A stretch of DNA of 64,000 bases, from NCBI RefSeq assembly GCF_004010195.1, contig NC_057719.1, positions 22,459,062 to 22,523,061 on the forward strand, read 5' to 3'. Under the pieces are notes generated by a model that saw only the letters and a program-made list of their open reading frames with translations, was not told the DNA's origin and made no database searches. Of the stretch, positions 12,891-63,322 are shown piece by piece. How positions within the stretch are numbered: position 1 is the stretch's first letter; each line of letters starts with the position of its first letter. The position numbers and the translations under genes are program-made. This DNA comes from Chiloscyllium plagiosum (lineage: Eukaryota).

Positions 12891-13967
12891 TCTGATTCCC
12901 CTATGGAAGAGGTTTGAAAAGTCCTGTGACAAATCAGAAACAGCAGAGGAACTGAGAAAGGAGGTGGTGGGGTAGAACTGGATGTTGTCAGCATAAATTC
13001 GAAATCTGATCTCCCTTCAGATTATGGCACACCTCCAGAAATATTTTCAACCAAAGGATTGCTGAGAGTTTCCAGAATGTCACTAATTTAGAGTTTTTAA
13101 AATGTACATAGTTGTGTTGTATTTTTTGTATTTTCTTTTAAGATTGTTAACAATCTGTTGAAGAGTTAAAATAATCTCGATCCCGTCCTGCTTTAAGCAG
13201 ATTTGGAGGTAACAGTGTGATCGCTTACAAACTCCATCGAGTGGGCTGACAAACGTAGACCTGGATCAAATCAGATGACTAATTGCAACATCAGTACATC
13301 ACTGACACCTGTTAAAGGAACATCTCTTGCGTTCTTGTTCTGAAAACCGATATATGGCTGCAGGTGTCACAATACTGTGTAACATTTGGCCAGAGCCTAT
13401 TGCTGCATAAGTTTGGAGCAGCCTTGCTGTGGAAACTGCTCAGAATTTACACATGGGCTTCCTTCCGTTCGTAAAATAAGTCATAAATGTGCTTTTTTAT
13501 GCACATTACTATTTCCTCGGATTTAATGAACAGAGGGAATGCTCCGATTATATTGTTTAGGTAATTATATTCTGTGCAGTGCAAAGGATTGAATGATGTT
13601 TCTCTTAATGCTAATAGTTTTAAATGCAGTCATAAATTAGAAGGCATTACATCAGCGATGCCATGACTGTGTACCCTTTGTTTGCATACCAATTCACCAA
13701 GATAAACCACAGTGCTCCATCATTGTATTCCATAAAAGCAAACTGATCCAAAGTTTTGGCTGGAGTGGAACTTAGCAACTGAATTCTGAATGGAAGTTCA
13801 CAAGTCTGTCTCTCAACAGAATTAGCATAGGAGCAATGTTGTAAAGAAATGACGATAGTGTTACTGGTTCAAAATTATAAGGGTGCTGTAGTGCTAATTT
13901 TTATTTATGAAAATGTGTTGCTGGAAAAGCGCAGCAGGTCAGGCAGCATCCAAGGAGCAGGAGAATC

Positions 13968-13995
13968 GACGTTTCGGGCATGAGCCCTTCTTCAG
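13968..13995 (-). ncRNA. Hammerhead ribozyme core (PLE)
   Basis: Reverse complement CUGAAGA-A-GGGC(UCAU)GCCC-GAAA-CGUC. Confidence 0.6.
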
Positions 13996-14073
13996 GAATG
14001 AGGAAAGTGTGTCCAGCAGGCTGAGATAAAAGGTAGGGAGGAGGGACTTGGGGGAGGGGCGTTGGAAATGAGA

Positions 14074-14506
14074 NNNNNNNNNNNNNNNNNNNNNNNNNNN
14101 NNNNNNNNNNNNNNNNNNNNNNNNNNNNNNNNNNNNNNNNNNNNNNNNNNNNNNNNNNNNNNNNNNNNNNNNNNNNNNNNNNNNNNNNNNNNNNNNNNNN
14201 NNNNNNNNNNNNNNNNNNNNNNNNNNNNNNNNNNNNNNNNNNNNNNNNNNNNNNNNNNNNNNNNNNNNNNNNNNNNNNNNNNNNNNNNNNNNNNNNNNNN
14301 NNNNNNNNNNNNNNNNNNNNNNNNNNNNNNNNNNNNNNNNNNNNNNNNNNNNNNNNNNNNNNNNNNNNNNNNNNNNNNNNNNNNNNNNNNNNNNNNNNNN
14401 NNNNNNNNNNNNNNNNNNNNNNNNNNNNNNNNNNNNNNNNNNNNNNNNNNNNNNNNNNNNNNNNNNNNNNNNNNNNNNNNNNNNNNNNNNNNNNNNNNNN
14501 NNNNNN
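14074..14506. other. Assembly gap (others at 17799-17804, 19323-19572, 20991-21487, 59937-60448)
   Basis: N runs, all inside young PLE or CR1 copies. Confidence 0.99.
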
Positions 14507-14707
14507 CCTCCCCCTACCTTGTCTCAGTCAAATCCCTCGAACTCACCGCCTTCCTAACCTGCAACCTTCTTCCTGACCTCTCCACCCCCTCTCCGGCCTA
14601 TCACCCTCACCTTGGCCTCCTTCCACCTATCGCATTTCCAACGCCCATTCCTCAAGTCCCTCCTCCCTACCTTTTATCTTAGCCTGCTGGACACACTTTC
14701 CTCATTC

Positions 14708-14735
14708 CTGAAGAAGGGCTCATGCCCGAAACGTC
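14708..14735 (+). ncRNA. Hammerhead ribozyme core (PLE)
   Basis: ctgaagaagggctcatgcccgaaacgtc. Confidence 0.6.
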
Positions 14736-15102
14736 GATTCTCCTGCTCCTTGGATGCTGCCTGACCTGCTGCGCTTTTCCAGCAACACATTTTCAGCTCT
14801 GATCTCCAGCATCTGCAGTCATCACTTTCTCCTTGCTAATTTTTATTAGTGAATAATTCACCTTCCTTAAATTGTTCTTCAGCCTATTCTGAAATGCTAG
14901 CATTGAGTTACATGACAACATGATTTTGATGCACGTAGATACTTTTAGAACAACACAGCTGCACCACAGTACTGTGGCAGGGTTAGACACAGCACTCAAA
15001 AACAGTATTTTAAGATGGCAATCAAATATAAACAGTAAAATACGAATCATGAGTGGAAATAAATTTATATGTTGAGATGAAGTAAGATCTTTCTTTAGTG
15101 AT

Positions 15103-18370: not shown

Positions 18371-18389
18371 ATTACCAGTCTCCAAGTGC

Positions 18390-18660: not shown

Positions 18661-19572
18661 GTCAATTAATTTAAAGTAATTCACAGATTAAGTCAGTAGC
18701 TAGAAATGTGTAGTCTTCTTGAGAGATCTCAATAGAATGTCCATACTTGGATTATGTGCTGATTTATAATACTTAATATTATACTAATGCTTCATCGAAA
18801 TGAATGCACGTTTTCTGAAGACATGCATTCACTAGAGATAGTCCCTTCTTTGCATCAAATATTATTGTAGCTGCTTGGTAGTCAATTTGACCAGTGAACT
18901 TTATACTGCACAAATCATAGTCATAGAGCTATGCATATTGAAACAGACCCTTCAGTCCAACGTGTCTATGCTAACCAGATTTCCCAAGTATATCTAGTTC
19001 CATTTGCTAGCATATAGTCCATATCTCTCTAAACCCTTCCTATTCATATATCCATCCAGATGTCTTTTAAATATTCTAATTGTGCTGACAGTGTGTTGCT
19101 GGAAAAGCGCAGCAGGTCAGGCAGCATCCAAGGAGCAGGAGAATCGACGTATCCTGCATGAGCCCTTCTTCAGGAATGAGGAAAATGTGCCAAGCAGGCT
19201 AAGATAAAAGTTAGGGAGGAGGGACTTGGGGGAGGGGCGTTGGAAATGAGGTAGGTGGAAGGAGGTTAAGGTGAGGGTGATAGGCCGGAGTGGGGGTGGG
19301 GGCGGAGAAGTCAGGAAGAAGANNNNNNNNNNNNNNNNNNNNNNNNNNNNNNNNNNNNNNNNNNNNNNNNNNNNNNNNNNNNNNNNNNNNNNNNNNNNNN
19401 NNNNNNNNNNNNNNNNNNNNNNNNNNNNNNNNNNNNNNNNNNNNNNNNNNNNNNNNNNNNNNNNNNNNNNNNNNNNNNNNNNNNNNNNNNNNNNNNNNNN
19501 NNNNNNNNNNNNNNNNNNNNNNNNNNNNNNNNNNNNNNNNNNNNNNNNNNNNNNNNNNNNNNNNNNNNNNNN

Positions 19573-20280
19573 TGGAGGTTGGGTTGGTGGGGGGTGTGGA
19601 CCTGATGAGGAAGTCACAGAGGGAGTGGTCTTTTCGGAATGCTGATAGGGAAGGGGAGGGAAATATATCCTTGGTGGCGGGGTCCGTTTGGAGGTGGCAG
19701 AAATGACGACGGATGATACGATTTATACGGAGGTTGGTGGGGTGGTAGGTGAGGACCAGTGGGGTTCTGTCCTGGTGTCGATTGGAGGGGCGGGGCTCAA
19801 GGGCAGAGCAGCAGGAAGTGGAGGAGATGCAGTGGAGAGCATCGTCGATCACATCTGGGGGGAAATTGCGGTCTTTGAAGAAGGAGGCCATCTGGGTTGT
19901 TCGGTATTGGAACTGGTCCTCCTGGGAGCAGATGCGGCGGAGATGAAGGAATTGGGAGAATGGGATGGCGTTTTTACAGGGGGCAGGATGGGAGGAGGTG
20001 TAGTCTAGGTAGCTGTGGGAGTCGGTCGGTTTATAGTAAATGTTCATGTTGATTCGGTCGCCCGAGATAGAAATGGAGAGGTCTTGGAAGGGGAGAAAGG
20101 AGTCTGAGACGGTCTTGGTAATTTTGAGGTTGGGATGGAAGGTGTTGGTAAAGTGGATGAACTGTTCAACCTCCTCGTGGGAGCATGAGGCAGTGCCGAT
20201 ACAGTCATTGATGTAGCGGAGGAAAAGGTGGGGGGGTGGTGCCAGTGTAGCTGCGGAAGATGGACTGTTCCACATATCCA
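19573..20280 (-). pseudogene. PLE reverse transcriptase C-terminal/thumb region (left arm)
   Basis: FLRYINDCIG...FTNTFHPNLK...IYYKPTDSHSYLDYTSSHP..CKNAIPFSQFLHLRRICS...DRTPLVLTYHP. Confidence 0.92.
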
Positions 20281-20297
20281 TTATGAAGATAAGGTGT

Positions 20298-20990
20298 TGG
20301 ACATCCAGTCCCTGTACACCTCCATCCCCCATCACGAAGGACGCAAAGACCTCCGCTTCTTCCTTTCCCGCCGAACCAACCAGTACCCTTCCACTGACAC
20401 CCTCCTTCGACTGACTGAACTGGTCCTCTCTCTGAACAACTTCTCTTTCCAATCCTCCCACTTCCTCCAAACCAAAGGAGTAGCCATGGGCACCCGCATG
20501 GGCCCCAGCTATGCCTGCCTCTTCGTCGGATATGTGGAACAGTCCATCTTCCGCAGCTACACTGGCACCACCTCCTCACCTTTTCCTCCGCTACATCAAT
20601 GACTGTATCGGCGCTGCCTCATGCTCCCACGAGGAGGTTGAACAGTTCATCCACTTCACCAACACCTTCCACCCTGACCTCAAATTTACCTGGACCGTCT
20701 CAGACTCCTCCGTCCCCTTCCGAGACCTCTCCATTTCCATCTCGGGCGACCGAATCAACACGGACATTTACTATAAACCGACCGACTCCCACAGCTACCT
20801 AGACTACACCTCCTCCCACCCTGCTTCCTGTAAAAATGCCATCCCATATTCCCAATCCCTTCATCTCCGCCGCATCTGCTCCCAGGAGGACCAGTTCCAA
20901 TACCGAACAACCCAGATGGCCTCCTTCTTCAAAGACCGCAATCTCCCCCTGACGTGATCGACGATGCCCTCCACCGCATCTCCTCTACTT
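20298..20990 (+). pseudogene. PLE reverse transcriptase core (right arm), frameshifted
   Basis: DIQSLYTSIPH...LNNFSF...QTKGVAMGTRMGPSYACLFVG...RYINDC...YYKPTDSHSYLDYTSSHP. Confidence 0.93.
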
Positions 20991-22973
20991 NNNNNNNNNN
21001 NNNNNNNNNNNNNNNNNNNNNNNNNNNNNNNNNNNNNNNNNNNNNNNNNNNNNNNNNNNNNNNNNNNNNNNNNNNNNNNNNNNNNNNNNNNNNNNNNNNN
21101 NNNNNNNNNNNNNNNNNNNNNNNNNNNNNNNNNNNNNNNNNNNNNNNNNNNNNNNNNNNNNNNNNNNNNNNNNNNNNNNNNNNNNNNNNNNNNNNNNNNN
21201 NNNNNNNNNNNNNNNNNNNNNNNNNNNNNNNNNNNNNNNNNNNNNNNNNNNNNNNNNNNNNNNNNNNNNNNNNNNNNNNNNNNNNNNNNNNNNNNNNNNN
21301 NNNNNNNNNNNNNNNNNNNNNNNNNNNNNNNNNNNNNNNNNNNNNNNNNNNNNNNNNNNNNNNNNNNNNNNNNNNNNNNNNNNNNNNNNNNNNNNNNNNN
21401 NNNNNNNNNNNNNNNNNNNNNNNNNNNNNNNNNNNNNNNNNNNNNNNNNNNNNNNNNNNNNNNNNNNNNNNNNNNNNNNNNNNNNNNTCGCATTTCCAAA
21501 CCCTCCCTCCCCCCCAAGTCCTTCCACCTTACCTTTTATCTTAGCCTGCTTGGCACACTTTCCTCATTCCCGAAGAAGGGCTCATGCCCGGAACTTCGAT
21601 TCTCCTGCTCCTTGGATGCTGCCTGACCTGCTGCGCTTTTCCAGCAACACATTTTCAGCTCTGATCTCCAGCATCTGCAGTCCTCACTTTCTCCTAGAAT
21701 ATTCTAATTGTACCAGTCTCCATCACTTCTTCTGGCAGCTCATTCCATACACGCACCATCCTGTAAGTGAAGAAGTTGCTGCTTAGATCTGTTTTAAGTC
21801 TGTCCCCTCTCAGCTTAAACCTATGCCTTCCAGTTTTGGATTCCTCCACCCCAGGGGAAAGATCTTGCTATTTTTCCTATCTTGTCCTATCCATGCCCCT
21901 CCTGATTTTAAAAACCTCTGTAAGGTCACCTCTCTGTTTCCGATGCTGCAGGGAAAATAGCCTTAACCTATTCAGCCTCTCATTGTAGCTCAAACCCTCC
22001 AATCCTGGCAACATCCTTAAACATCTTTTCTGAACCCTTTCAAGTTACACAACAGCCTTCCTATATCCCTTTTGGGAGACCAAAATTGCACACAGGACTC
22101 CAAAAGTGGCCTAACCAATGTCCTGTACAGCTGCAACATCACATCCCAATCCTATACTCAACACACTGACCAATAACGGCAAGGTTCCAAATGTCTTCTT
22201 CACTATTCTGTCTACCTGTGACTCCACTTTTAAGGAATGATGAACCTGCATGAACAACCAAAGTCTCTGTTCAGCAACACTCCCTAGGACCTTACCATTA
22301 AGTGTACAGGTTCTGCCCTGAATTTTATTTGTGGAAGTTAGTAGCACCATATATTATTTGTAAGGGTAATTTTGGAATGATGTATCTAAAAGTAAGTAAA
22401 GCATCTGCAGCAAGTTTTTCCGTGCTATTGTTATGCAAAATAACTACATCTAACCCGGTGATGAGGCATTGAATGCTAAAATAAATTTTTCCTCAGACCA
22501 TTATGAGGCAAAATAAATGGCAACCTAGGTCTATGAGCCAAAAGTCACCACACATTTTTAACTAAGGCCTCTCCAGTGCTCAATTCAGTTCTTTGTACAA
22601 ATATATGGACAGCACTGGGGCTTGGCTCAATGATTCATAAAGTTTTCTGAACTGTCTCTCAGTTTCAGGCTGCTACAGATTGGATGAAGTATTTGCAAAA
22701 TGACATCCCGTTGTGAGTCATCACTTTCTCAGAGGGGAGGAGAGACAGGGGAAGATAAGCAAAGCAAATAAGAATTTAGGATGACCTTGTTTTCTAAAGG
22801 TTTGAATTTAATAAATAAAATGGTAATTACATAAGCAAATCAGGAATTAACATGGTGACGATCTCTCTTCCGACTCAGAATGTAAAACTTGCTGTAACTT
22901 GAAACAGTTAAAACAAATAAAACAGATGCTTTTAAAGGGAAGCTAGATAAAAAGATGAAGCTGAGAGCTGAAG

Positions 22974-33401: not shown

Positions 33402-33615
33402 ACTGCCCTATCGCATTTCCAATACCCCTCCCCCATGTCCCTCCTCCCTACCTTTTATCTTAACCTGCTGGGCACACTTTCCTCATTCCTGAAGAAGGGC
33501 TCATGCCCGAAACGTCGATTCTCCTGCTCCTTGGATGCTGCCTGACCTGCTGCGCTTTTCCAGCAACACATTTTCAGCTCTGATCTCCAGCATCTGCTGT
33601 CCTCACTTTCCCCTC
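33402..33615 (+). mobile_element. Short PLE 3'-end insertion with 14-bp TSD
   Basis: pLTR plus tail; TSD gattattgaagata at 33388-33401 and 33616-33629. Confidence 0.92.
33489..33516 (+). ncRNA. Hammerhead ribozyme core (PLE)
   Basis: ctgaagaagggctcatgcccgaaacgtc. Confidence 0.6.
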
Positions 33616-43237: not shown

Positions 43238-43546
43238 TAGATTAGATTCCCTTCAGTGTGGAAGTAGGCCCTTCGGCCAAACAAATCCACACCGAGCCTC
43301 CGAAGAGTAACCCAGATCCATTTCCCTCTGACTAATGCACCTGACACTATGGCCAATTTAGTCTGGACAATTCACCTAACCTGCACATCTTTGGATTGTG
43401 GGAGGAAACCGGAGCACCCGGAAGAAACCCACGCAGACACTGGGAGAACGTGCAAACTCCACGCAGATAGTCGCCCAAGGCTGGAATCAAATCCCAGTCC
43501 CTTGTGCTGTGAGGCAGCAATGCTAACCATTGAGCCACCATGCCGT
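43238..43546 (-). mobile_element. HE1-like V-SINE
   Basis: tagattagattccc tail, V-domain gggaggaaaccggagcacccgg, tRNA-like head. Confidence 0.95.
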
Positions 43547-44713: not shown

Positions 44714-44890
44714 GCAAAAGAGAAGACTGCAGCTGCTGGAGATTAGAGTCCAGAGTGTGGTGCTGGAAAAGCACAGCAGGTCAAGCAGCATCCGAGGAGC
44801 AAGAAAATTGACTTTTCGGACAAAACCCTTCATGATGATGCTGCCTCAGATGCTGCCTAACCTGCTGTGCTTTTCCAGCACCACATTCTC
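44714..44890. mobile_element. Fold-back pLTR-only PLE mini-element
   Basis: gtggtgctggaaaagcacagcagg..gcagcatc paired with gatgctgcctaacctgctgtgcttttccagcaccac; possible decayed TSD. Confidence 0.85.
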
Positions 44891-45604
44891 ACCTTAATTC
44901 AATGACCTTCCTCCTAGGAGTTTTAAAATGTGCAGAATTACCTCAGGGTAGAATATATGAAAAGGTTTATTATCACAGAAACAACATTTTCTTTGAAGCT
45001 TACAATCCAGAGTTAAGTATTCTAGGATATTGTTATCCAGATGTAGGCCCATGGGAATTTATTTATGAGATTGCAACTCTGTACTTGCTTATGAATATTT
45101 ATTGTAAAAATCAGTTCCAAATTACATTACAATAATGAATACTATATAATAGAATATTAAATGTAGATGTTTAAATTCACCTTATATGACTGGATATTCA
45201 ATCAAATACATTTAAAGCAAACTGCAACACAAGGCAGTACACTTTCCATACCTTCTTTGTTTCATTAAAGGGAGTTTTAGTGCTGTGCCCTGTATTGGCT
45301 GCTGTTCTCTCTTTCTGTCTGTCTGTTTTTCTCCCTCCCGCTGTGTTTTTTTTAATTCATGTGTGTTGTATTATAATTTATCTCTGTGGCAGAAAGAGAC
45401 AGGCTGTCTTTGTTCATTGTATGTCCACAAAACAAGTCTGATCAATTTGCTTATGCAGTTCCTTTAATTAATTCATACACTTCAAACAATTGTCCCATCC
45501 AGTTTTCTCACAGGTGTTTGGCTACCTTTCAAGGTCCCTCAAGGTCCCATGCTTTTCTTTACAGTGCTTGTGCACCTATTCAGCTGCTAGATGTAGTGAT
45601 TTCA

Positions 45605-45912
45605 TTTCTTAATTCATTCACAGGATTTGTGCATCTATCACTAGGCTAGAATTTACTACCTAATTGCCCAGAAGGCAATTAAGAGTGAACCATTTTGCTG
45701 TGGGTTGGAGTCACATTAGACCAGATCAGGTAAGGACATTAGTGAAGCAGATGGGTTTTTACAATAATTGCAATGATTTTGTGGTCATCATTAGATCCTT
45801 AATTCCAGATTTTTATTGAATTCAAATTCCACCATCTGCCATGGCAGGATTCGAACCCTGGTGCCCTGAATATTATCAAGGTGCTTGGATTAATTATCTA
45901 GTAATAATACCA
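45605..45912 (-). mobile_element. tRNA-derived SINE (family 2)
   Basis: ggattcgaacc (reverse B box), aaggacattagtgaa, 3' end ttcattcacagga...ctaattgccc. Confidence 0.85.
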
Positions 45913-45959
45913 GTAGTTTTAACTAATGCCCCCCATAATTTGGTCAATTTCTTTACAAT

Positions 45960-46620
45960 AAAGCAGAAGGAGGTGCAGATAATGGAATGGGTGAGGTCAT
46001 TGGAATTTGAAAGAAAGGACAAGAATTTCAAAATTAAAATTATTGTTAGGTGGAGAGCTAACATTAGTCTGGTCCACAAACTTTGCAATGATGGATGAAC
46101 ACAATTTACTGTGAGTAAGGCTTTGGTCAACAAAGTTTCAGATGAGCTTGAGTTTATATCTAGTGGAAGATGGGACACCAGTTAGAGAGTATTAGAACAA
46201 GAAGATCAAAAAGTAACAAAGTCATGGATGAGGTTTTCACACTAAATAAGCTGAGATAAGGATGGAGTTGGATGATGTTCTGAACATCAATAGAAGTGAG
46301 GCAAAAGTGAGGACTACAGATGCTAGAGATTACAGTCATGATTAGAATGGTGCTGGAAAAGCACAGCAGGTTAGGCAGCATCCAAGGAGCAGGAAAATTG
46401 ATGTTTCGGGCAGGAGCCCTTCATGAGGAATGGCCCTGATGAAGGGCTCCTGTTCTGAAACATTGATTTTCTTGCTCCTCGGATGCTGTCTGATCTGCTG
46501 CATCAATAGAAGTGACCTTGGTGACTGTGTGGAGAGGTGATCAGACACTCAGCATGGGGTCAAATACAATACAGAAGTTTGTGAATGATGTAGTTCAGTT
46601 TTAGACAAAAGTCAGGTGAA
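45960..46620 (-). mobile_element. L2 LINE fragment interrupted by a PLE mini-element
   Basis: gatgagcttgagttt...gtggaagatggga...gtaacaaagtcatggatgaggttttca...ggggtcaaata. Confidence 0.7.
46300..46500. mobile_element. Fold-back pLTR-only PLE mini-element with 15-bp TSD
   Basis: TSD catcaatagaagtga at 46285-46299 and 46501-46515; two opposed degenerate hammerhead cores. Confidence 0.9.
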
Positions 46621-46969
46621 GGGTGGTGTTAAGAACCAGGAAGTGGAATTTATGATAAGGACGTAAGGCCTTAGGATCTGAAGGGGAAGCTGATTACCTT
46701 TATTGTGAGACAGAGGTAGGAGGTGGAAATCAGATATCTTGAAAGGTGGCATGGAGCCTTGTTTGGGAACCAGAGATTGGAGCTTGGTGGGTTTTTTCAG
46801 AGGACATTGGGGGTCTCAGGTGATGATTATGGAGGCAACCCAATTGAGGATCTTCTGCAGGCAGGCTTCTTGATACAGCAGGTAAACGTGAAAGCACTCA
46901 CATTCTGAATTGACCCTCACCTTGAGCTGCTGGGATCCCCATGATTTTTCAATTCTGGAAACCATTAAT

Positions 46970-47160
46970 TAAAAGTAAAGGTAAAGTTGCTATAGTCCTG
47001 CTCTGTCATAAGATAGACATGACTGGTGGTAGTTTAACTTGAGGGTTACCATGCCTCAGTTGAGGAGAGAGGTTGGGAAAGAGAGTCCTTCATGTTAACC
47101 ACAACTGATGTAGGTATTGAACCCAAAGCCAACCAGCCTTCCAAGCTCACTTATCCCCAT
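46970..47160 (-). mobile_element. Probable SINE fragment (third family)
   Basis: Reverse B-box-like ggtattgaaccc and a simple aaaagtaaaggtaaag tail. Confidence 0.4.
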
Positions 47161-48119
47161 TGCACCCCCAGATAGCAATTAAACTTGAGTGAAGGACATC
47201 AGTGAGACTGACAGCCTCAACATCAAAAGTAAAAATCTTGCATTGAATGAGTTCCCCACATATATTTTGGTGTCAATTAGAGCTGGAAATAAGTGGGTTG
47301 GAGCTTGGCCTGGATTAGGAAGTAGGTTTTACTGACCTTAACCTTCCCACCCAATGCAAGCTCACACAATCTTCTTTTAAATATAAAATTCTTGCTCACA
47401 TTGTAATTTGCAACCATTCCAGGATATTTCTGGGAGTTCTGGGACCATGTCAAGTCAATCCACTGAAGTTTATTTCTATTGCAAAAGCAAAGCTTGAACA
47501 ATGGGTCTGCTGTTTATCTCAGTATACGGAACCATCAAAGCTACATTTGGATAGGAGGTAGGAAGAAGGAAATGTGGCCCAGCTATTTTATTTAATATGC
47601 TGAGCATTCTGTGACCAATCTGAGTGGGATTGATACTTGAGTGCCATTGAAATCTCATCCTGAAGCTGTGCTGTAGACCCCGTCCACTAAACCACCAGAC
47701 CAAACAAGTTCAGTGTATTAAACAGGGCTGGGTTAATCACGGGTTCACAGAGCATAGTGTCCAATCCATTGCTCCACCCATTATTTCATTGAAGTTCTGA
47801 TATTAGTTGACTTCAAGTCAGAATGGAAATATAAATGGGGTGTAGTGTTAAATAGGCTGCTGATTAACTATGGACCCAATTTTAATTGATAAATTCCAAT
47901 CTCTTTTTCAGAGTCCAGTGAATCAGAGTTTGTACTTTTTTTTATTTCTTAACATATATCAAGTAGACATTTCTGTGCTTCAATTAAATGTAAATCATCC
48001 TTTACGTTTCCAACGGTTGTGCTGCTTCTTTTCCTGACAGTTTATGAGAATAATTACAAAAGTTGCACTTTTAAAAAATTGGAACAATCATTGTTTTGGA
48101 GTCTAGGTAAACTGAGGTA

Positions 48120-48258
48120 CCCCCGCTCCACTCCGGCCTAGCACCCTCACCTTGACCTCCCTCCACCTATCGCAATTCCAACGCCCCTCCCCCAAGTCCC
48201 TCCTCCCTACCTTTTATCTTAGCCTGCTGGACACACTTTCCTCATTCCTGAAGAAGGG
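48120..48258 (+). mobile_element. PLE fragment ending within the hammerhead
   Basis: Near-identical to 14580-14718; stops at cctgaagaaggg. Confidence 0.9.
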
Positions 48259-50829
48259 TTTGAGAATGACATCTTGGAACCACAAACTGTTTAAATTCTT
48301 ACTGTGATAGTCTGTTCTCATCATTGTTCCCAAGTTCCAAACATTCTTAATCTGAGGGAATAACCCGTAAAAATGTATAGTCTTAATGTAGATTTTTCAA
48401 TCAGTTTACCATAGGTTTCTTGGCATACCAATGAATAAAGAATTCTTCTTAGCACATTGCACTCAGCATTAAATTACAGAAGGTCACCAAGAGGTTAGAA
48501 TTTTCAAACATAGCTTTTTTAAAAAAATTTGCAGTGGAATTGAAATTTTTCAATCTACTAAATGTTGACAGGTTTGTCATTTTAAATTTCTGTGGATTAA
48601 GTTGTGAGGTATTATCAGTACCTCAAACTTTCGCTGGCCTGGCAATACCCTTGTGGCTTTTGATTCCAATGACAAGTCCAAAACATGAATTGCTTTGTGT
48701 AAAAGCACCTGAGAGAAAAAATAAAGTCTTACATTTATACCACAGCTTATCGAATTGCTCAGGAATGACTCAAATGCATTGGCCCAGAAGCTGTAACATT
48801 GCTAAAATGCAGATGAGTTTTGAGTTTCAAATATCTCTCTGCTCTATTTTAGTGGAAGGATTAACCTGTACTAAAATAGCAGAGAGCAAAGAATTTCAGA
48901 CAATTATGTTAAGCCTTGCTATGCGACTGTGTATTCTCTGAGCTTATGTGTTCCTTTGAAGTCTGCAGTTATGTGGATAAATGCAACAGGCATTTTTACA
49001 GACAAGAGGCCCACAAATAGAAAGAGATAGAGAGCTATAACCAGTTTATTTACATTTGTTTGAGTGAGGAATGCTGTTTGAAATTCCTTCTCTCAGCAGT
49101 GGCATTTAATGCCATATTGAGGACATCATTCACAACTGAAAGGAAAGGTTTAACAAGATTGGCTATGAGTTCAGTGCGGTGTTCATTTTATAGAAACTGA
49201 ATGAGGAAGCGCGATATTTTCTAATAACAGTAATACTGTTCAACTTTCAACTACTCTTCCCCCTCCACAAAATTGAAGTTGCTCACCCCTGATGCCATAC
49301 TGGTAACTCTCCTCGAAAATCTCAAGCCATTAACCTTCTTCCTAAAGTATGGTGCATACAATTGGAACAATACCATAACTCCACGATTTTACCCACTGAG
49401 GCAGCACTTGGGAGTTGGGTTATTTCCTCATGCTGCTTTTCCACTTCCTCTTCAATTCACATGCTCCTGTTATTCTGTAGGTCAGGTCAGATCAGAGTTA
49501 GAGCAGCTGCCAACCAAAGCAGCGCTGAGGCAGGAAGACAGGAAAGCAGATGCCAAGATGGACAGTTTACAAGGCCTGGCTCCATTCACTTGGACATTGG
49601 CCTGATCCAAATTCTGCTCATAACAGCAAGGGCCTGGAACTGTCATCTCTCAATCCCACCTACTAACCATCACCATGTCTCCTCCCTGAACCCCATCCTC
49701 TCTGTTGTAAAGTGAAAGGTGAAAAAGTGTACCTTGACTAACCTTGACCAGTTTGCAGTAACAATTTTCAACTCAAGGGTGCTATGCGGTGAGATAGACA
49801 ATGGGTCAAGAGCGAGGGGAAGATCAAACACAATTTTGTTGAATACTGTATCAAGGAAAAACAATATTTTTCAGACTATACTATTGTATTTCAATTAAAG
49901 TCTATCAATCTCTTCACAGGACTCTTTAGTAAACAGCCTTAAATCTACACTAGCTATCTACTTGATCCGCACATCTGAGGATTCACTACACCCTATCCAT
50001 AGCTCCCTAACACTGTATTTGAACTGTTTGAAAGGACTCTTAATACCCTTCAATAATGTTAAGACAGGCTGCTCCTCAGTCTTTGAGGGTTGGCTGATGT
50101 TTCAAGATCTGCATTCGCCGATTTGGGCTCTCCTTTCTCCCAGGGGTGGTTCTGGTCTTTGGAATGCCTCATCCAGGTGGTCTCTCTGGGTCTGGTCAGT
50201 CTAATAATGCTGGCCATGAGGTACAAGGAGCTGGAGATGCTGTATAAATCAGCTGCAAGTATCTCCAGAGATGCCATTAGGGAATGTGCAAAAGCAGAAG
50301 GTGAGCTGGGGGTTCAGGATGCATCTTTTATCCCCCTCTTTGTGTGCTTCTCAAAGATTCTGTGGCCTGTGTCCAACACCAGTGTTGGGCAGAGGTAGGA
50401 TGATCCAGTGAGGTGACTACTTTCCATATTTGGAGATCACAAAACATGGTTTCCAACTTTTAACTGTCAAGTGCAGCTTTTGTCACACTGAGTTTCTAGT
50501 CTCCAACTGAGCTGGGTGCCACCAAGTCTGTGTAACTTCTTCAATCATTGCAGCTTCACTGGAGGTGGGACCAATGATTCATTCTGAAACATTGTGGCCA
50601 TTAGGTCCTGGCCAGGTAGCTCCACATCTGTCTGGTTTCAATGGGAGGTTGATTGCCCAAGGCCTGGCTGCATGAACACTCCACAGTTTGCAAATTACAG
50701 GGTCCAGCTAGGCTTAAACTTGACTTCCACATTTGGAGTTTTTATCCACAAAAAAAATGAAAAAGGTTCGTATTTCTGTAACAATCCTACAGGTTATGGG
50801 TCACCTGACCACTCCTCCACATCTACTCA

Positions 50830-51054
50830 GGAGAAAGTGAGGACTGCAGATGCTGGAGATCAGAGTCGAAGAGTGTGGTGCTCGAAAAGCACAACCGGTC
50901 AGGCAGCATCCGAGGAGCAGGAGAATCAACGTTTCAGGCATCAGCCCTTTGTCAGGATTCATTCCTGATGAAGAGCTTCTGCCCAAAACATCGACTCTGC
51001 TGCTCCTTGAATGCTGACTAACTGGCTGTGTTTTTCCAGCACTCCATTCTTTGA
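50830..51054. mobile_element. Fold-back pLTR-only PLE mini-element
   Basis: Inverted arms; TSD ctccacat(ct)actca at 50815-50829 and 51055-51067. Confidence 0.88.
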
Positions 51055-51597
51055 CTCCACATACTCACCCTGTATCCACTGTATTAAGAACTCAGGAACT
51101 TAACAATTGGAAGTCTTTGAAATCTTTATATAACTGTCAAAATATACAGGTATGAAAATGAACCACACTTGAAAATAAAACTAATTTCTCTCAGGACCTC
51201 ATAGATCCATTAGGCAAACTTAGAATCATTCAAACTCCACTGCATGTTAAGCTTCATAGTAAGTGACTAAAATAGCAGACAGCCAGTCAAAAATGAGTGC
51301 AAAAACATAGTTTTGTTAAGTACTTATAAAACTGCCAATCAAACACAGCACATAGACTCCTTGACAGTTACATCATTCATGTCCTGAGCTGGATCAGTTA
51401 ATAGGGTTTAGAGCTCAACCAAGCATTCATAATCAGATTCTGTTGTACAACTATGTCAACAAAACCTCCAGACCTAAATATGGTAAGGTCTTTGAAGTTG
51501 CTTAAACAAATGGCTGATAGAATAAAGAACATAACAATCTGGTCTGTATTTTCAAAGACTGAAAATATGACTGGACTGCAAATTCATATAAATCGTG

Positions 51598-51897
51598 GGC
51601 AGCACGGTGGTACAGTGGTTAGCACTGCTGCCTCACAGTGCCAGAGACCCGGGTTCAATTCCCGCCTCAGGCGACCGACTGTGTGGAGTTTGCACGTTCT
51701 CCCCGTGTCTGCATGGGTTCCCTCCGGGTGCTCCGGTTTCCTCCCACAGCACACAAAGATGTGCAGGTCAGGTGAATTGGCCATGCTAAATTGCCCGTAG
51801 TATTAGGTAAGGGGTATGGGTGGGTGGCGGGTCGGTGTGGATTTGTTGGGCTGAAGGGCCTGTTTCCACACTGTAATGTAATCTAATCTAATCTAAA
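51598..51897 (+). mobile_element. HE1-like V-SINE (young)
   Basis: A/B boxes, V-domain, (TAATC)n tail. Confidence 0.96.
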
Positions 51898-52499
51898 TAT
51901 CAAATATATTCCATATTGCACATTACCATCTAATTTCAAGACAGTCCAATGCAGAAGAGATCATTAATAACAGGAGAAGTATTTTAATGCATCAGAATAC
52001 TTTCACAATGCTATTCGATAAAACTGTCACTTCCTTTTGAAGGATAAAGCCCTATCATTATTAATTGCTTAAAAACGGACTTAATTTCACATTCAGCATC
52101 TAATTACGGCATTTGAAGGTGGCAACAACATTCTGCCATATCTGGCAAAGTTCCTGAGTCCACAATCAGCTTCTTCCAGGTTCATGAATTTGTGAACTCA
52201 GTGTTCTGATATGTTCATACAAACTTCAGAAATCCATTGTCTTGCTAAAATCTCCAACTTTGTTAAAGTCAAAAGTGACAAAGCATTACTGTGGAAGACA
52301 GAGTGTCAATTTGGGTATAAACGTATTGGGATTCACCATGTTTTCTGTGGACATGGTAGCTTGGAACCAGCGTGCAAATTCATATCTATGTTTTCCTCCA
52401 TTTGTATCCACTCAACATGGATTTGCTCTGTGTATGTTCCGGAGAATCCAGTCCTTAGGACTATCGATAAAGCCAAGAAACCTGTAAGCTTTACACTGT

Positions 52500-53460
52500 T
52501 GCAGTTTTAAAGCTGCTCTTGTAGCTGCTACTGCCAGAAGATCTGTTGTCATGATATGTGACATTTATCTGTCATGCCCCATTATCATATGTCCACTGTA
52601 GCTCATGTATAACCAGTCTGTGTTGCATGCCCTCTAGCTATACCCAGGTTAACCCACTTTCTGCTGCCCTCCACTTTGCTTTCTAGATGAAATCTCTGTA
52701 GCTTTTCAGTTCTGATCAACTGGCCGAAATACTGACGTTCTCTTGGAACTACAAGTACTTCTTCATTTCTCAATGGTATGTATGCACATTTTTTAGCAAA
52801 TGACTCAGCATCCATATTACAAAGGCCTCTATATTCTTCCCTTGCTCTTTACTTATTGTCCAGGTTTCTGAGGTATAAAAGAGATTGCATAGAAAGTGGT
52901 ATCTTATGAGTTTGCGCTTGTTTGAAGCTTGATTTTTCTCATTATTAAAACATCTTTCACTTTCACAGAATTACCTGTGTCAATCTCTATCATTCTTCTA
53001 ACTTCTGCGTCACATTTGCCATCTTCACTTGTCATCTGTCCTAACTAGCCAAACCTGTCTATTTGTTCCAGTACAACACAATCCATTTCAATCTTTACTT
53101 TAAATTCTTCAAACATATTCCTTCTGTCTACCATTGCTTTTACATTTTTTGGTGTTTGTGTTCAATCTATATTCTAAACCTCTAGATTTTAGTTGATCAG
53201 CAACATATTTTAGGGCCTTCTCTGATTCTCCAAGAAGTGTTGTAAGTGTACCAGAATTTGTTACCTTGTTACCCCCATTTTTTTTATTTTTTGGAATAGT
53301 ATATCATTCTCTTAATATTTGTTCTGTTTACAAACTGAAAAATATAGAGAGTCGACAGAGCATTTTTCTCCTCTTGAGTGCTCCTTTCATCACTTTGAAA
53401 CAGGTCCAATTATCACCACTTTAACCTGGTGTTAGGTACTTGGTCTTAATAAAAGCCCGA
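52500..53460 (-). mobile_element. RTE-clade LINE ORF2 relic
   Basis: VLEQIDRFG.LGQMTSEDGKCDAEVRRMI; YTSETWTISK; RNEEVL..RQYFGQLIRTEKLQRFHLESKVEGSRK. Confidence 0.8.
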
Positions 53461-53879
53461 GATGAAATGCATATTTATGTTATTAATGTCACATTTCAGC
53501 AGCCCATCTAGGTGAATGCTTGTTCATATCCTATGAAATATGCGTGAACGGTCATCTGTACTTTTGGATATTTATCAAAGACATTTCATAGGTTAAATAA
53601 CACCTCTCTTGTTCCCACTCCAGTTCTAAGTTGAAAATATGCTCCATCAATTACAAATGTGCTGTTGTTTATTTGTTTGTTTTATAATTCTGAAGATTGC
53701 TTTAATGAGATGTGTAAGCTTATAGTTCTAAAATGATTGCACTCCCGTTTGGGTTTCTGAAGCAATGTTGTGAATAATGAATGTCTCAGCTCCCTTGGAA
53801 TATAACTTTTGTCATATATTCAATCACATATTTCAGTTATCACTTCTAAATCTGTATCTCCAAGGGTTTTTAGATATTT

Positions 53880-54100
53880 TGTGGTTATTTCATCTGAGGT
53901 TTGCACCAGATGCTGAAATCTTTGACAGATAAGAGAGAGGGTGATAACAACAGAATATGAGTGCACAAAAGACAAAGATGGTAAAACATTGCTTGGGAGA
54001 GATGCAAGAGTGAAAAAATGAACAGAATATAGAAGCAAATTGTGCAGTTATCCAAGTCAAAGGAGTAATCACAATATGAAGGCAAACAATTTAAAATATT
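53880..54100 (+). mobile_element. RTE ORF2 fragment, opposite orientation to its neighbour
   Basis: KDKDGKTLLGRDARVKK*TEYRSKLCS resembles RTE 'KDKDG..L......RW.EY...LY'. Confidence 0.55.
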
Positions 54101-56319
54101 TCGTTGTATCATTTTACCAATGTACAGGTGAGAGACTTATGGGTCTAGCTTTCTTTTCAGTCAACTAGCTTGTAATCAATAAAAAAGTCAGAATTCGTCT
54201 GATATCCTCAAAGATCTCTGTACTGTCAGTGTTCCTCAAGTCATACAGATGTCTTAGTATCTTAAATGCTGACATCACTGTTCTGTTAAAAAGAACACAA
54301 CAGGAAGATATATGGAGTTGAATTGACAAAATGCTTCACAGTATTCAGTGGACAGGAATTTGATTTAAGGTTTTCTGTATAAACAATTATACACAGTGTT
54401 CTATATTCCTTTTTCTATGTCCCCTAACTCTATCACGAGCAATACAAAGTATATAGTTCATTTCCTCATGTAGAGCAATAGCAATGTGTTTGTAATTAAA
54501 ATAAAGTGGCTGATAAAAGACAAACACTGAGTAATGGTCATATCGACTAGCTTTGGCCACCTCTCCAAAAACAAATTCTTCTTCATTGGCTTTCTTTTTT
54601 TGGCAATGCTTTGTTGACGACATTGCATAACTGCAATTTATTGTTGTTAATTATAATAGAATTCAGAAAATGTGTTGTATTTTGTGACAACTGTTTATCC
54701 TTCTCCTCCGCACTGCAGTTTGAGCACAATTCTGGTCGGTATGAAAACTAATCCTAATGCACAAATGCTGAAGCTGCAATGATGTGCGAAAGAAAAGTGT
54801 GGGCTGCCCTTTCAAATAAGTGGAGGATGTCCATTATTATCTCTTAAATGTCATCTCACCAACATCTCCTCCCCATTCCTCCTCCTCACCCAACCCTTTC
54901 TTTCCCATTAAGTAACTCTGAATCAGAAGTGAACTGCACCATTTCAGTTTCTTCTCACAAAAATGTGAATTTAACTTTTATAAAGTTTGGTACTGAAATG
55001 TGCATAATCTGGATTTAATTTACATCTAGCTATTACATTTAATCGACTCATTTAACTGGTATTGTAAATGAAAATAAGATGGTATAAATCCACTTTACAC
55101 CGATCAGCACTGACAGTGCTGTAGGGCTGGCAGTGTTACTTCTGATCCCATTATATGCCATCCCAACTTGCTTTCCCGTTGGCTTCATTGGAAAGTCACA
55201 TTGCGCAGGGTGACTGATCCAAGTTCATTGCAAGTCCAGCCCTACCAAATTAAGAATTATCCTCACCCCACTCTTTTTAGATGAAAAACTATTGATGCTA
55301 TTTGTCCAATTTACATTTCTTAATTGAATAGCACTCAATTCAAATTCTTAGATAACTCACATATATTGTCATGCTAGATTATCATTTTGTTATGCAATTT
55401 ACTTGGTTTTATTCCATTTATTGAGTTATTTAAAGTGTTCTTGGCTTTTAAATGTGGCTGAAATATGTGAGTAGACTGCATAAATGCACAATTTTACAAT
55501 TGTATTTCTTCATTTTTTTTCTCGATATTCACACTTGGAGAGTATTGCCGAATATTAATTAATGGAAACACATTTCAGTCTCTGGAGAGTTATTTTGATG
55601 GCTTTAACAAGCAACTTTGGTTCTTAATTACTTCATTACTTTGTAGTTTTTAGGTAAACTATTCTGCCACCCGTTTAATTTTCAGTTAAAGACTTAGGAA
55701 TACATTGAGTGAAATAATTATTTATGCTGCTTGTAATTGCCACATTATGCAAATAACTTAAAATTAACTGTAATTAAATAAATTGACTGTATTGGAAGTA
55801 CTATGTCTTAATTTATTGTTTAAATGGACCATATGTATGCTTTTTGTGATATTAGTTTATTGGCCATTACGTGGAAACAAGCCATCAATTTGGTACTAAT
55901 GTGTATCTACAAAAAAGGCAGCAAATGCACACTTTGTTTCTAGCAAGACCAGTAAAGATTGTTACTTTCAAACCTTTTGAATATGTCCTTCAGATGAGGA
56001 TATTCAAATCGTGCTTTGCAATCTTGCACTTTACCTACCCAGGGATGCGAAAGAGAGTTAGATTTCTTACTTGTCAATATTTATTATCTGACAATCCCTG
56101 CAAATCTAATGGCAGGAAGTGTACCAATATCATGGTCTCTCTCACACTATCATTCCCAGTGCCTCAAATTGGTCAAATCAGCTGTATTGGCATATCACCT
56201 TGTCCTTATGTCCAATACAATATTTCTGAAGCAAGTTCTTTGCTCTAGGATTGAAAAAATACTGGGATTTCTGGAGATCTGAAACAAGGAAAGATTTAAC
56301 ATTCAGCTTCCATGCCCAT

Positions 56320-56487
56320 GTTGCTTGTTGCTGGAGAAACCCAATAGGTCTGACACAACTGTGAAGGGAAAATAGATCTAATGTTTTGAGTCCAGTGACT
56401 GAAGGAGGGTCATCAGACACAAAATGTTAATGTTGTTTTCCCTCCACAGATGCTGCCAGACCTGTTGAATTTCTCCACCAATTTCAG
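56320..56487. mobile_element. Fold-back PLE mini-element (second family)
   Basis: tgctggagaaacccaataggtctgac... versus ...gatgctgccagacctgttgaatttctccacca; degenerate ctgaagga..gtcatcagac. Confidence 0.65.
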
Positions 56488-56499
56488 TGCTCCATTCCT

Positions 56500-56880
56500 G
56501 GCTTCATCAGGGCAAGTGGCTACTAAGAGGGCAGAGGAAAAAGATTTCAAGGTTTTCTTCAAAGTCTGCCTGACAAAAAAGTGCCAAATTCTGACTGACT
56601 TATGGGAATCTGTTGGCTAAAGCTGCCCTAACTGGAAAAGAAACATGCAAGAAGGTACTAATTATCTTGAGCAACTTCAACATGCCCAGTGGAGGCAAAG
56701 CACAAACATCAGAAAGAGGCTGTGAAAACTGAGCCGACCCACCCACCCCTTCAAACAACACCTGCAACCTGTGAGGCAGGGTGTGTAGATCCAGAATTGA
56801 AGGGCTTACTCACCTCAGGACCCACTTCTGGAATGGGAAAATACATGCTTTGTTTTGACGGACTGCCTAAGAAGGAAATA
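56500..56880 (+). mobile_element. RTE LINE 3' end
   Basis: QGKWLLRGQRKRF; decayed terminal Cys/His motif (..LTHLRTH); tail ggactgcctaagaagg. Confidence 0.75.
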
Positions 56881-57039
56881 GATAGCTCTTCCTCATTTGG
56901 TCAGGATCTTTTCATATAGCAGCAGCACAAAAGCTGGGAACATGTAAACACTTGACTACCAGAGTTTTACTTTAGGCCACCTCAAGCAGGCAACATCACA
57001 CTGGTTTGCATTGGGAGCAAAATAAATAAAAACTGACAA

Positions 57040-57690
57040 ATAACAACAGAATATTCCAATGCATTTTACCACCAATGTAGTAATTTTGAAGTGTAGTCAC
57101 TGTTATACAAAAAGTGGCAGCAAATTATGGAAATGTGATAATGATCAGATAACCTGTTTTAAGGTGTTGAATAAGGGATAAATAATGGGCAGGGCACGGG
57201 GAACATCTGTTCTTCAAAATAATGTCTGTGAGAGTTTCCAGGTTCATTTGAGAGAGAGGAAAGTGTCCCAGTTCAACATCTCATCTAAGAAACAGCAAAT
57301 CACATAGTGCAGTATTCCCTTAGTAGTGCAGAGGAGCGGATGTCTTGATTGTCGTTCTCAGCTCTTAAAGTGGGACTTGAACCAACAAGGAGAAAGTGAG
57401 CACTGCAGATGCTGGAGATCAGAGTTGAAGAGTATAATGCTAGATAAGCACAGCAGGTCAGACAGCATCTGAGAAGCAGAAGAATCAACGTTTTGAGTAT
57501 AAGCCCCTCATCAGGAATAAGTGTTTGTTGCTGGAGAAGGGCTTTCCTGATGAAGAGCTTACATCTGAAATGTCAATTTTCCTGCTCCTCGGATGCTGCC
57601 TGACCTTCTGTGCTTTTCCAGCACCACATCTTCGACGTTGAACTAACAAGTCTGACTGAAGTCAAGAGTGCTATCTGGGAATAGAGCTAT
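57040..57690 (-). mobile_element. Deu-domain SINE (SacSINE1-like) split by a PLE mini-element
   Basis: gttcaacatctcatctaagaaacagc...agtgcagtattcccttagtagtgca...gtgggacttgaacc|...tctgact...agagtgcta. Confidence 0.8.
57390..57637. mobile_element. Fold-back pLTR-only PLE mini-element with 13-bp TSD
   Basis: TSD ttgaac(c/t)aacaag at 57377-57389 and 57638-57650. Confidence 0.88.
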
Positions 57691-62664: not shown

Positions 62665-62900
62665 GGCAGAGCAAAGTACAGCAGATGCTGGAATCTGTAC
62701 AGAAAACAACCAATGCTGGAGATCACAGTCGTTCAGGTAGCATCCATGGAGAGAGAGCAAGGTACATTTTGGGTCTAGATGACTCTTCGTCAGAGCTTAT
62801 GCTATAGTGGGAGGGAGGAAGATTGGAGTGCTGGGGGAGAAAGAATGTTGATAGCTCAGATTAAGTGGCAAAGGAATTAATGAATAACAAAAACAAGAAG
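62665..62900 (-). mobile_element. PLE 3' end (second family) with degenerate hammerhead
   Basis: Reverse complement ctgacgaagagtcatctagacccaaaatg...ggatgctacctgaac...ctccagcatt...ttccagcatctgc. Confidence 0.7.
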
Positions 62901-62962: not shown

Positions 62963-63322
62963 CGGCACAGTGGCACAGTGGGGCGGCACGGTGGCACAGT
63001 GGGGCGGCACGGTGGCACAGTGGTTAGCACTGCTGCCTCACAGCGCCAGAGACCCGGGTTCAATTCCCTCCTCAGGCGACTCTCTGTGTGGGGTTTGCAC
63101 ATTCTCCCCGTGTCTGTGTGGGTTTCCTTTAGGTGCTCCGGTTTCCTCCCACAGTCCAAAAATGTGCAGGTTAGGTGAATTGGCCTGCTAAATTGCCCGT
63201 AGTGTTAGGTGAAGGGGTAAATGTAGGGGAATGGGTCTGGGTGGGTGCGCTTCGGCGGGTCGGTGTGGACTTGTTGGGCCGAAGGGCTTGTTTCCACACT
63301 GTAAGTAATCTAATCTAATCTT
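62963..63322 (+). mobile_element. HE1-like V-SINE with triplicated 5' head
   Basis: About 3 copies of ggcggcacggtggcacagtgg, B box ggttcaattcc, V-domain, (TAATC)n tail. Confidence 0.96.

Follow-up and report, generated by a model that had tools for sequence, protein, structure and literature searches.

Short hairpin insertions in a shark genome as the shortest form of head-to-head, one-tailed Penelope-like element insertions with a fixed inner boundary

The insertion units of canonical EN+ Penelope-like elements (PLEs) consist of a pLTR, an adjacent inverted and 5'-truncated copy, and a tail of 30–40 bp on one end (Arkhipova 2013; Craig 2021; PMC3846280; PMC8557442, Fig. 2 legend; PMC2377424, Fig. 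1C legend). How the tandem and inverted ends of PLEs are formed is left open in PMC8557442 and PMC11167929. For a PLE protein from Anolis, an in vitro study reports that both strands are cut and extended, with starts at two internal sites bracketing the tail (Frangieh 2024; PMC11167929). For one Penelope transcript of D. virilis, the start lies within the upstream pLTR (PMC2377424). The minimal hammerheads of metazoan PLEs include dual motifs in Schistosoma, 100–700 bp apart on opposite strands (PMC4209133).

We have analysed a stretch of 64,000 nucleotides from Chiloscyllium plagiosum, called the window below, in which a preliminary description had placed four short fold-backs (minis, E1–E4) and two large insertions (L1 and L2). 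The features are:

44714..44894, minus strand: mini E1, tailed arm 44714-44838 and short untailed arm 44839-44894
46300..46500, minus strand: mini E2, tailed arm 46300-46432 and untailed arm 46434-46500
50830..51054, minus strand: mini E3, tailed arm 50830-50957 and untailed arm 50959-51054, with a near-symmetric centre
57390..57637, minus strand: mini E4, tailed arm 57390-57521, 22-nt centre spacer and untailed arm 57544-57637
57522..57543, plus strand: E4 centre spacer, with a piece of 14–17 nt in antisense orientation to the sequence directly preceding site B
13906..14833, plus strand: large insertion L1, inverted untailed arm 13908-14073, N gap 14074-14506 and tailed arm 14507-14833
19084..21697, plus strand: large insertion L2, inverted untailed arm 19084-20279, 18-nt filler 20280-20297 and tailed arm 20298-21697
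33402..33615, plus strand: solo tailed copy of the same family, without an inverted arm
14798..14832, plus strand: tail of about 35 nt, delimited by site B (~14795-14799) on one side and site A (14832/14833) on the other
14708..14735, plus strand: minimal hammerhead motif (CUGAnGA, extra A, 4-bp helix II, GAAA, CG palindrome, UC), predicted cut after 14735
14704, plus strand: candidate RNA 5' end, where short copies have a fixed 5' boundary; this is the A in TCATTC, and the hammerhead core follows 4 nt later

All six insertions were recovered where they had been placed, to within a few bases, with E1 extending to ~44894. It was likewise borne out that each consists of two inverted, head-to-head copies of one module of ~90–130 nt (6/6), and that only one arm carries the tail (6/6). 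The tailed ends all stop at an identical ...CC (7/7, the six insertions and the solo copy). The untailed arm had been said to end at a shared site in five of the six, close to 'cagcaccac/aacac'; the sharing holds, but the exact site does not, as it lies at the equivalent of 14795-14798, 7–10 nt beyond that sequence. The untailed arm of E2 stops 25 nt before site B is reached. With independent tailing of each end, one-tailed units in 6/6 would have P ~0.015, given a family-wide tailed share of 0.53–0.56 that was taken from the top loose-end rows among those listed; the fully readable insertions number six only. It is important to note that earlier publications already describe the one-arm asymmetry as a typical PLE trait. 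Folded as RNA, the minis reach −91 to −120 kcal/mol (z −8.6 to −14.4 versus base-shuffled copies).

The tailed arm reaches further 5' in four of the five visible centres, the centre of L1 being unseen because of a 433-N assembly gap. In E1 the start of the untailed arm within the module lies 38 nt 3' of that of the tailed arm, and in E3 the untailed arm is equal to the tailed arm at the centre or slightly longer. The 18-nt filler of L2 finds no match with fewer than 4 mismatches in the rest of the window. For the piece in the E4 spacer, the score against a young copy was reached by 0/2000 shuffles, and the comparison with E4's own arms gives p=0.018; the piece is a candidate for a template jump or a templated insert. 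A profile search also revealed a much older fold-back-like pair of another family at ~56325-56481, the left arm with an E value of only 0.012. With a tail recognisable on neither arm, this pair is a possible exception to the one-tail rule.

Target-site duplications (TSDs) of 13–15 bp surround the whole unit in 5/6 fold-backs, and the solo copy has one too:

46285-46299/46501-46515: E2, 15/15
50815-50829/51055-51067: E3, 15 vs 13 with a 2-nt gap (ungapped p=0.02)
57377-57389/57638-57650: E4, 12/13
13892-13905/14834-14847: L1, 14/14
19070-19083/21698-21711: L2, 14/14
33388-33401/33616-33629: solo copy, 14/14

The candidate for E1, 44703-44711/44895-44903, matches at 8/9 (p=0.25) and is not above chance. 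Because the TSDs are variable, the ends are unequal and the module also terminates an RT-bearing copy, the insertions are retrotransposition products and not DNA transposons, in agreement with the preliminary description.

The source element is probably an endonuclease-type PLE, with relatives probably of the Neptune/Nematis type. Both arms of L2 carry a PLE reverse transcriptase (RT), with 65–83% identity to shark proteins (E down to 8e-99; the RVT_1 match alone is weak), and have in common a frameshift, a YIDD-to-YIND change and pLTR variants. Since the two RT arms have the same inactivating changes, one template is indicated; L2 shows trans-mobilisation of a dead template. The arm-specific changes are neutral-looking by codon position (7/6/9). 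Shark relatives have RT, a CX4CxxC linker and GIY-YIG. The GIY-YIG domain, in EN+ PLEs a C-terminal endonuclease with a CCHH motif, is found by Pfam in P0010, P0025 and P0014, and its motif is visible in P0002 and P0004, the L2 region being N gaps (19323-19572, 250 N, and 20991-21487, 497 N). A CX2-5CxxC linker between RT and EN, which sets the Neptune and Nematis clades apart from Penelope and Poseidon, is seen in P0002 and P0004, the window region again being an N gap. In P0004 the end of the ORF reads through into hammerhead sequence, and the pLTR and the minimal hammerhead lie 3' of the ORF. The copy number is high, with >100,000 contigs aligned per public run. A Pfam scan of 43 of the 62 long ORFs of the window gave only two other RT fragments, and no tRNA genes were found. 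A metagenome scan gave 0 matches to a 32-nt pattern; the 17 matches to a 20-nt pattern were each limited to 20–26 nt and were treated as chance.

With a hammerhead descriptor using the features of PMC4209133, intact copies are found also at 63(+), 13995(−) and 33489(+), making 4 descriptor matches in younger copies. None of the eight mini arms has an intact motif, and the only sense arm would be paired with the other arm, so a role for the opposed ribozyme cores mentioned in the preliminary description is not supported. Rfam gave 0 matches at gathering score in the whole window, minimal hammerheads not being modelled there, and two chance-level matches in the solo copy, neither a hammerhead. 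As to the A-to-I editing raised in the preliminary description, the RNA reads do show an editing-like A>G excess, a candidate sign of such editing.

We now turn our attention to the centres. Seven of the eight mini arms end there within 7 nt of each other (14701-14707 equivalent), just 5' of the hammerhead core. The 14704 equivalent is also the top 5' loose end in 4/4 public runs (536, 571 and 606 contigs; 220 reads), and RNA reads as well as the DNA of three species show the boundary. In >500 contigs per species it adjoins unrelated AT-rich DNA (agreement 0.3), and the boundary is therefore not dependent on a master hairpin. The 3' ends in the public runs fall at A (14832/3) and B (~14789-14799) in about equal numbers. 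A symmetric 14704/14704 joint is absent among the 15 joints listed, with 145 more beyond the listing and counts that were saturated. Clipping by another subfamily may add to the 14704 counts; as the sole cause of the pile-up it was rejected, since the window's own centres show the boundary, and the unrelated AT-rich loose ends also oppose it. The poly(A) single-cell reads have no pile-up of RNA molecule ends, in a library type that may not show 5' ends, and this result was given no weight in either direction. A look-up of the unique stretch listed no RNA data set containing it.

The four minis have four different centre junctions and, judged by the tail end, loop II and the B region, represent at least three sub-lineages, which supports a hairpin geometry made at insertion. 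The proposed de novo formation is supported in this respect, with the qualification that the arm ends cluster at a fixed boundary and are not random truncations. The fixed inner boundary may mark the RNA start of the element; at 14704 the position is observed and its role as transcription start is what we infer.

The reading we favour, with moderate confidence, is that an endonuclease-type PLE leaves the minis as its shortest insertion products, made anew at insertion by priming from two nicks at sites A and B. A GIY-YIG nuclease, assigned on the basis of the relatives, would nick both target strands 13–15 nt apart. One nick would prime reverse transcription at internal site A, the tip of the tail, and the other at site B, likewise internal and ~35 nt upstream of A, both probably on a single RNA and presumably in that order. 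The two cDNAs would then face each other, and joining of their 3' ends via microhomology or filler would yield a head-to-head pair with one tail. With the 5'-terminal module of the transcript as template, both cDNAs would run off just before the hammerhead to give a 180–250 bp hairpin, while with a downstream module they would enter the ORF and give insertions of the L1/L2 type. Two priming events had been proposed before and are retained; the suggestion of a tailed and an untailed RNA end is better replaced by two internal RT starts, as shown for an Anolis PLE (PMC11167929). Site B is a landing point as well, because direct-tandem joints in the public runs connect 14799/14800 to 14705-14725 and because of the piece in the E4 centre. 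A more far-reaching version, which we hold only tentatively and consider less likely than not, is that the minis record a 'strong-stop'-like step, in which the enzyme binds the 5' module of the mRNA, primes at A and then B on one RNA and runs off at the cap site, seeding shark genomes with ADAR-edited intronic hairpins.

It is important to point out some observations that go against two-nick priming. The E2 end is 25 nt short of B, the 56325-56481 pair is tailless, and no 14704/14704 joint is listed. The tailed arm lying further 5' in 4/5 centres is a prediction of snap-back that two-nick priming does not need. The PLE studied in vitro belongs to the Poseidon clade, while the present element has relatives with a Neptune/Nematis linker, and because start-site use in that system is without strand difference, the strict A/B pairing is not explained by it (PMC11167929).

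An origin as MITEs or foldback DNA transposons, derived from PLE sequence and mobilised by a transposase, would fit short, non-coding, high-copy units with inverted arms. The TSDs that transposases give in MITEs and foldback transposons have a short fixed length of 2–11 bp. Here they are 13–15 bp and variable, the ends differ by ~35 nt in 6/6 so that there are no matching terminal inverted repeats, and solo, tandem and RT-bearing copies all have these ends too; this reading is largely refuted and hardly credible. Another option considered was a set of self-propagating non-autonomous families, in which PLE enzymes acting in trans would make full copies from the transcripts of a small number of master minis. 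Non-autonomous PLE derivatives exist (MRC1; PMC8557442), L2 is a case of a dead template mobilised in trans, the centres and sizes are clustered, and E3 and E4 have one G-to-A change in common, on the untailed arm only. However, four different junctions in four minis of at least three sub-lineages, and a boundary next to unrelated AT-rich DNA, make such families very improbable.

The most serious competitor, though still rather unlikely in our view, is snap-back: priming would take place only at A, and the 3' end of the cDNA would fold back and be copied towards the tail, stopping near B and joining the second target strand. A related self-priming on an antisense template was proposed by Arkhipova (2013; PMC3846280). 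Snap-back accounts for the strict one-tail asymmetry, the single template of L2, the longer tailed arm at the centre (4/5) and a looser B end, E2 included. Against it, a PLE protein starts reverse transcription at B in vitro (PMC11167929), and B is the jump target in direct tandems and the E4 spacer, which a mere stop site would not give, and the untailed arm of E3 is not the shorter one. A different question is whether the inner boundary comes from cutting or splicing instead of transcription start, by a nuclease at ATT, a splice junction or ribozyme processing. Positions 14704-14706 are ATT, the motif preferred by the Anolis PLE nuclease (PMC11167929), the 5' side of helix I is where a D. 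virilis intron ends, and in some opposite-strand joints an arm begins at 14737-14741, right after the predicted ribozyme cut. Those joints are a minor class, though, and could have arisen by deletion between the two copies of a short direct repeat, at 14704 and 14737. The boundary is not preceded by AG and lies 31 nt upstream of the ribozyme cut, and a splice acceptor at 14704 and the ribozyme cut as main centre were rejected on these grounds. We thus consider this origin of the boundary unlikely, somewhat more so than snap-back.

The short hairpin inserts are the shortest form of the already described head-to-head, one-tail PLE insertion, and since this geometry is known, the finding as originally stated is ordinary; the new contribution is the fixed inner boundary. 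The literature search, with most subscription papers and the Repbase/Dfam entries outside its scope, gave no direct description of pLTR-only fold-backs in sharks. Such hairpins are liable to mis-annotation as MITEs. In each of the very many minimal insertions two starts and one stop are recorded, and together they form a data set on two-nick priming versus snap-back. If true, an ordered A-then-B rule would be one mechanism for tails, tandems and inversions, and shark genomes would hold very many ready-made intronic hairpins, ADAR-edited like inverted Alu pairs in primates.

Like canonical EN+ PLE units, the shark insertions have head-to-head arms, a tail on one end, a TSD around the whole unit and a palindromic or near-palindromic centre; unlike them, the minis are the module alone (180–250 bp) with a fixed inner boundary, and the TSDs are 13–15 bp as compared to 8–10 bp in rotifer PLE examples. 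In L1 twin priming, both target nicks prime cDNA and an inversion results within one TSD. On the favoured reading the shark units are alike in both respects, but their arms copy the same stretch from fixed starts, whereas the L1 pieces are non-overlapping. Non-LTR retrozymes (PMC7229834) are also short, hammerhead-bearing and non-coding animal retroelements. They have, however, direct tandem repeats, canonical type I hammerheads and circular RNAs, whereas the shark copies are dispersed inverted pairs with minimal, decayed motifs; a retrozyme was rejected in view of the inverted pairs, the intact motif in 0/8 mini arms and the lack of an Rfam hammerhead match. With metazoan PLE hammerheads (PMC4209133) the motif shares the extra nucleotide before helix II, G10.1-C11.1, the palindromic 15.2-16.2 and opposite-strand pairs, while helix I is only ~2 bp and the motifs in the four minis are decayed. 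PAc, the Poseidon element of Anolis carolinensis, is probably of a different clade, and the available part of its description does not report ordered pairing of both sites or run-off minis. In PAc as here, two ends ~35 nt apart define the tail, AC-rich sequence lies by site B and a hammerhead lies upstream; both strands are cut and extended in PAc, as they would be here on the favoured reading (PMC11167929).

Comparison of the window with itself, together with a scan for inverted repeats, confirmed the six structures of the preliminary description, each a head-to-head pair of the terminal module (pLTR with a minimal hammerhead) of a Penelope-like element (PLE):

44714-44894, mini fold-back E1
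46300-46500, mini fold-back E2
50830-51054, mini fold-back E3
57390-57637, mini fold-back E4
13906-14833, large fold-back L1
19084-21697, large fold-back L2

Using the tailed arm of L1 (window 14560-14833) as a ruler for the arm ends, we find that every structure combines one arm reaching the tail tip (site A, 14832/14833) with an inverted, tail-less arm. In E1, E3, E4, L1 and L2 this second arm terminates at the position matching 14795-14798 (site B), and in E2 at that matching 14772. From the ends at A versus B, the tail is thus ~35 nt long. The minis have predicted folding energies of -91 to -120 kcal/mol (z -8.6 to -14.4) and are old, as the identity between paired arms is just 75-90%, no higher than between arms of different minis. 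A profile search revealed no further fold-backs of this family in the window. The same search returned, at ~56325-56481, a very old fold-back-like pair of a different PLE family, with the tail recognised on neither arm.

The arm ends were then compared with those of the whole family, using sets of DNA contigs from three organisms (A, B and C) and a raw run of single-cell poly(A) RNA from organism A, together 4 of 24 listed runs, mapped to 14507-14870 at 80% likeness. At least 125,064, 105,182 and 168,496 contigs were mapped (saturated counts), together with 3,852 of 12,955,460 RNA records. Among the top ends listed, the main ones agree across all runs: a 5' end at 14704 (at least 536, 571 and 606 contigs; 220 reads) and 3' ends at 14832/14833 and 14788-14793, the last of which run ~10 letters on in older-subfamily sequence and correspond to site B. 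Ends at A and at B are of similar frequency (1606:1410, 1745:1392 and 743:618 in the three runs listing both A positions), and with independent ends six one-tailed structures out of six would have a P of about 0.015. The recurrence of the same ends and this low probability refute random arm end-points. The fold-backs are real, non-random, minimal PLE insertion units.

Target-site duplications (TSDs), evaluated against 3000 random flank pairs, match at 15/15 positions in E2 and at 14/14 in L1, L2 and the solo copy at 33407, which is tailed and lacks an inverted arm (each p <=0.0003). E4 has 12/13 (p=0.003), and E3 aligns 15 nt to 13 nt once a gap is allowed (p=0.02 ungapped), while the E1 candidate, 8/9, is not above chance level (p=0.25). 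The matching TSDs argue that L1 and L2 would each be a single insertion despite assembly gaps. As already proposed in the preliminary description, a MITE origin is ruled out, because the TSDs are variable (13-15 bp), as judged against transposase TSD lengths, and the ends are unequal.

Reverse transcriptase is present on both arms of L2. Searching with the left arm matched 35 of 535 candidate proteins; those from Chiloscyllium, Rhincodon and Stegostoma match best (65-75% identity), which points to a carpet shark as the likely host. Three of the four full-length relatives scanned have RVT_1 together with a GIY-YIG domain at the C-terminus; the L2 nuclease region falls within assembly gaps, and GIY-YIG is known here from the relatives. 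The CX4CxxC linker in the shark relatives P0002 and P0004 marks what appears to be Neptune/Nematis, not Penelope/Poseidon. The reading of P0004 continues into hammerhead sequence, which places the module 3' of the ORF.

Both L2 arms share a +1 frameshift, a YIDD-to-YIND change and one more substitution, in a column where six relatives do not vary. Likewise, pLTR variants are common to both arms within L1 and within L2, the two sets being different. Because of these shared changes, both arms come from one source, which was apparently already dead and moved in trans. The differences between the L2 arms (7, 6 and 9 by codon position; 12 codons non-synonymous, 7 synonymous) look neutral. A single RNA would most simply supply both arms; early gene conversion between them is a possible alternative for the sharing. 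L2 itself sits within a fragment of another repeat, as 17805-19081 and the sequence from 21698 on each match the family of the other. Also dispersed in the window is a ~300-bp repeat of SINE-like size, with five or more copies:

36088-36376, repeat copy
38238-38523, repeat copy
43236-43545, repeat copy
51597-51894, repeat copy
63002-63321, repeat copy

We now turn to the inner ends. Seven of the eight mini arms stop within 14701-14707 (chance <1e-5 over all arms and ~1e-3 over just the four tailed ones). This boundary precedes the hammerhead core (14708) by 1-7 nt and the predicted cut (14735) by 31 nt. In the DNA contigs, 14704 is preceded by unrelated AT-rich sequence (agreement 0.3), which means that single-arm stubs have the same boundary and that it is independent of any master hairpin. 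Position 14704 is the A of TCATTC, which we take to fit the initiator consensus, and we infer that it is a transcription start. In D. virilis, transcription of Penelope begins within the upstream pLTR (PMC2377424). In the predicted fold of the young family, the bases immediately upstream of 14704 are able to pair with the core (14698-14716), and an RNA beginning at 14704 would be without most of this blocking strand.

The minis had been suggested to contain opposed ribozyme cores, for which we see no evident function: minimal hammerheads require same-sense dimers (PMC4209133), and the mini copies are decayed. A descriptor built after the same text has four matches in the window, all within younger copies, and finds an intact hammerhead in 0/8 mini arms. 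The same source describes hammerhead pairs on opposite strands, 100-700 bp apart, in Schistosoma. Among other modules in the window, 62675-62793 (-) is a tailed stub with one arm, from another PLE family, that likewise starts just before its own core; 1-165, truncated where the window begins, is a tail-less module with an intact motif from a third subfamily; and 48120-48258 is an internal piece of pLTR that ends inside helix II.

The differing centres had been read as suggesting that each element formed de novo. Base by base they do differ, but the arm stops cluster. De novo formation is still favoured, on other sequence grounds: the four minis have four different junctions and represent at least three sub-lineages, judged from loop II, the B region and the tail end (TTTTGCC or TTTCTCC); against it, E3 and E4 have one change in common, in the untailed arm only. 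A symmetric centre joint is not among the best 15 of 160 joints listed. The opposite-strand joints listed resemble E1 in pairing an arm at 14702-14722 with another at 14739-14797. Several have one arm at 14737-14741, just after the predicted cut, and the other at 14701-14705; these could be either ribozyme-cut templates or deletions between short direct repeats.

According to Frangieh et al. (PMC11167929), a PLE protein cuts and extends both strands, and reverse transcription begins at two internal sites, the gap between which is the tail. Priming at A from one nick and at B from the other would give the observed head-to-head, one-tailed geometry, presumably in the order A then B and probably with one RNA for both cDNAs. 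Direct-tandem joints from 14799/14800 to 14705-14725 (2-5 contigs each among the joints listed) and a piece of the E4 spacer antisense to the B region (0/2000 shuffles reach its score) support the view that B is a start and not just a stop. Snap-back of a single A-primed cDNA is a serious rival to this two-site priming: the tailed arm is longer at 4/5 visible centres, and no strand difference in start use was seen in vitro (PMC11167929). The commonest joint listed is a tail-to-tail, opposite-strand one from B to A (14793 and 14832/14833; 6, 13 and 7 contigs in three species), which could reflect adjacent repeat insertions or tandem fold-back units.

Family RNA reads occur in both directions, and 93% continue into dissimilar sequence, which makes most of them passengers of host transcripts. 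The A-to-I editing check proposed earlier gave an A>G excess, at 33/66 A positions in RNA vs 6, 8 and 8 in the DNA sets, with no rise in G>A (17 vs 17, 18 and 23 of 44; Fisher p 0.0006-0.004), in a comparison of different individuals, of reads against contigs and with saturated DNA counts. The excess is editing-like but unproven: T>C against C>T gives no significant excess in RNA (p 0.21-0.59), and transversions are likewise somewhat higher in RNA. The one strand-biased site listed, 14802 (314/1026 vs 50/440 reads; DNA 4-7%), lies in the tail, unpaired within the fold-back.

In literature outside most subscription journals and outside repeat databases, we found no description of pLTR-only fold-backs in sharks or of a fixed boundary before the hammerhead. 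The one-tail asymmetry is already in print. The fixed inner boundary and the evidence for a single template add modestly to the known PLE picture, and they make the integration mechanism testable. In the target after the tail (14834 onward), ATT tends to sit at positions 6-8 (consensus in 3/4 runs, with low agreement; 4/7 window sites), reminiscent of the preference for ATT shown by the PLE nuclease of Anolis.
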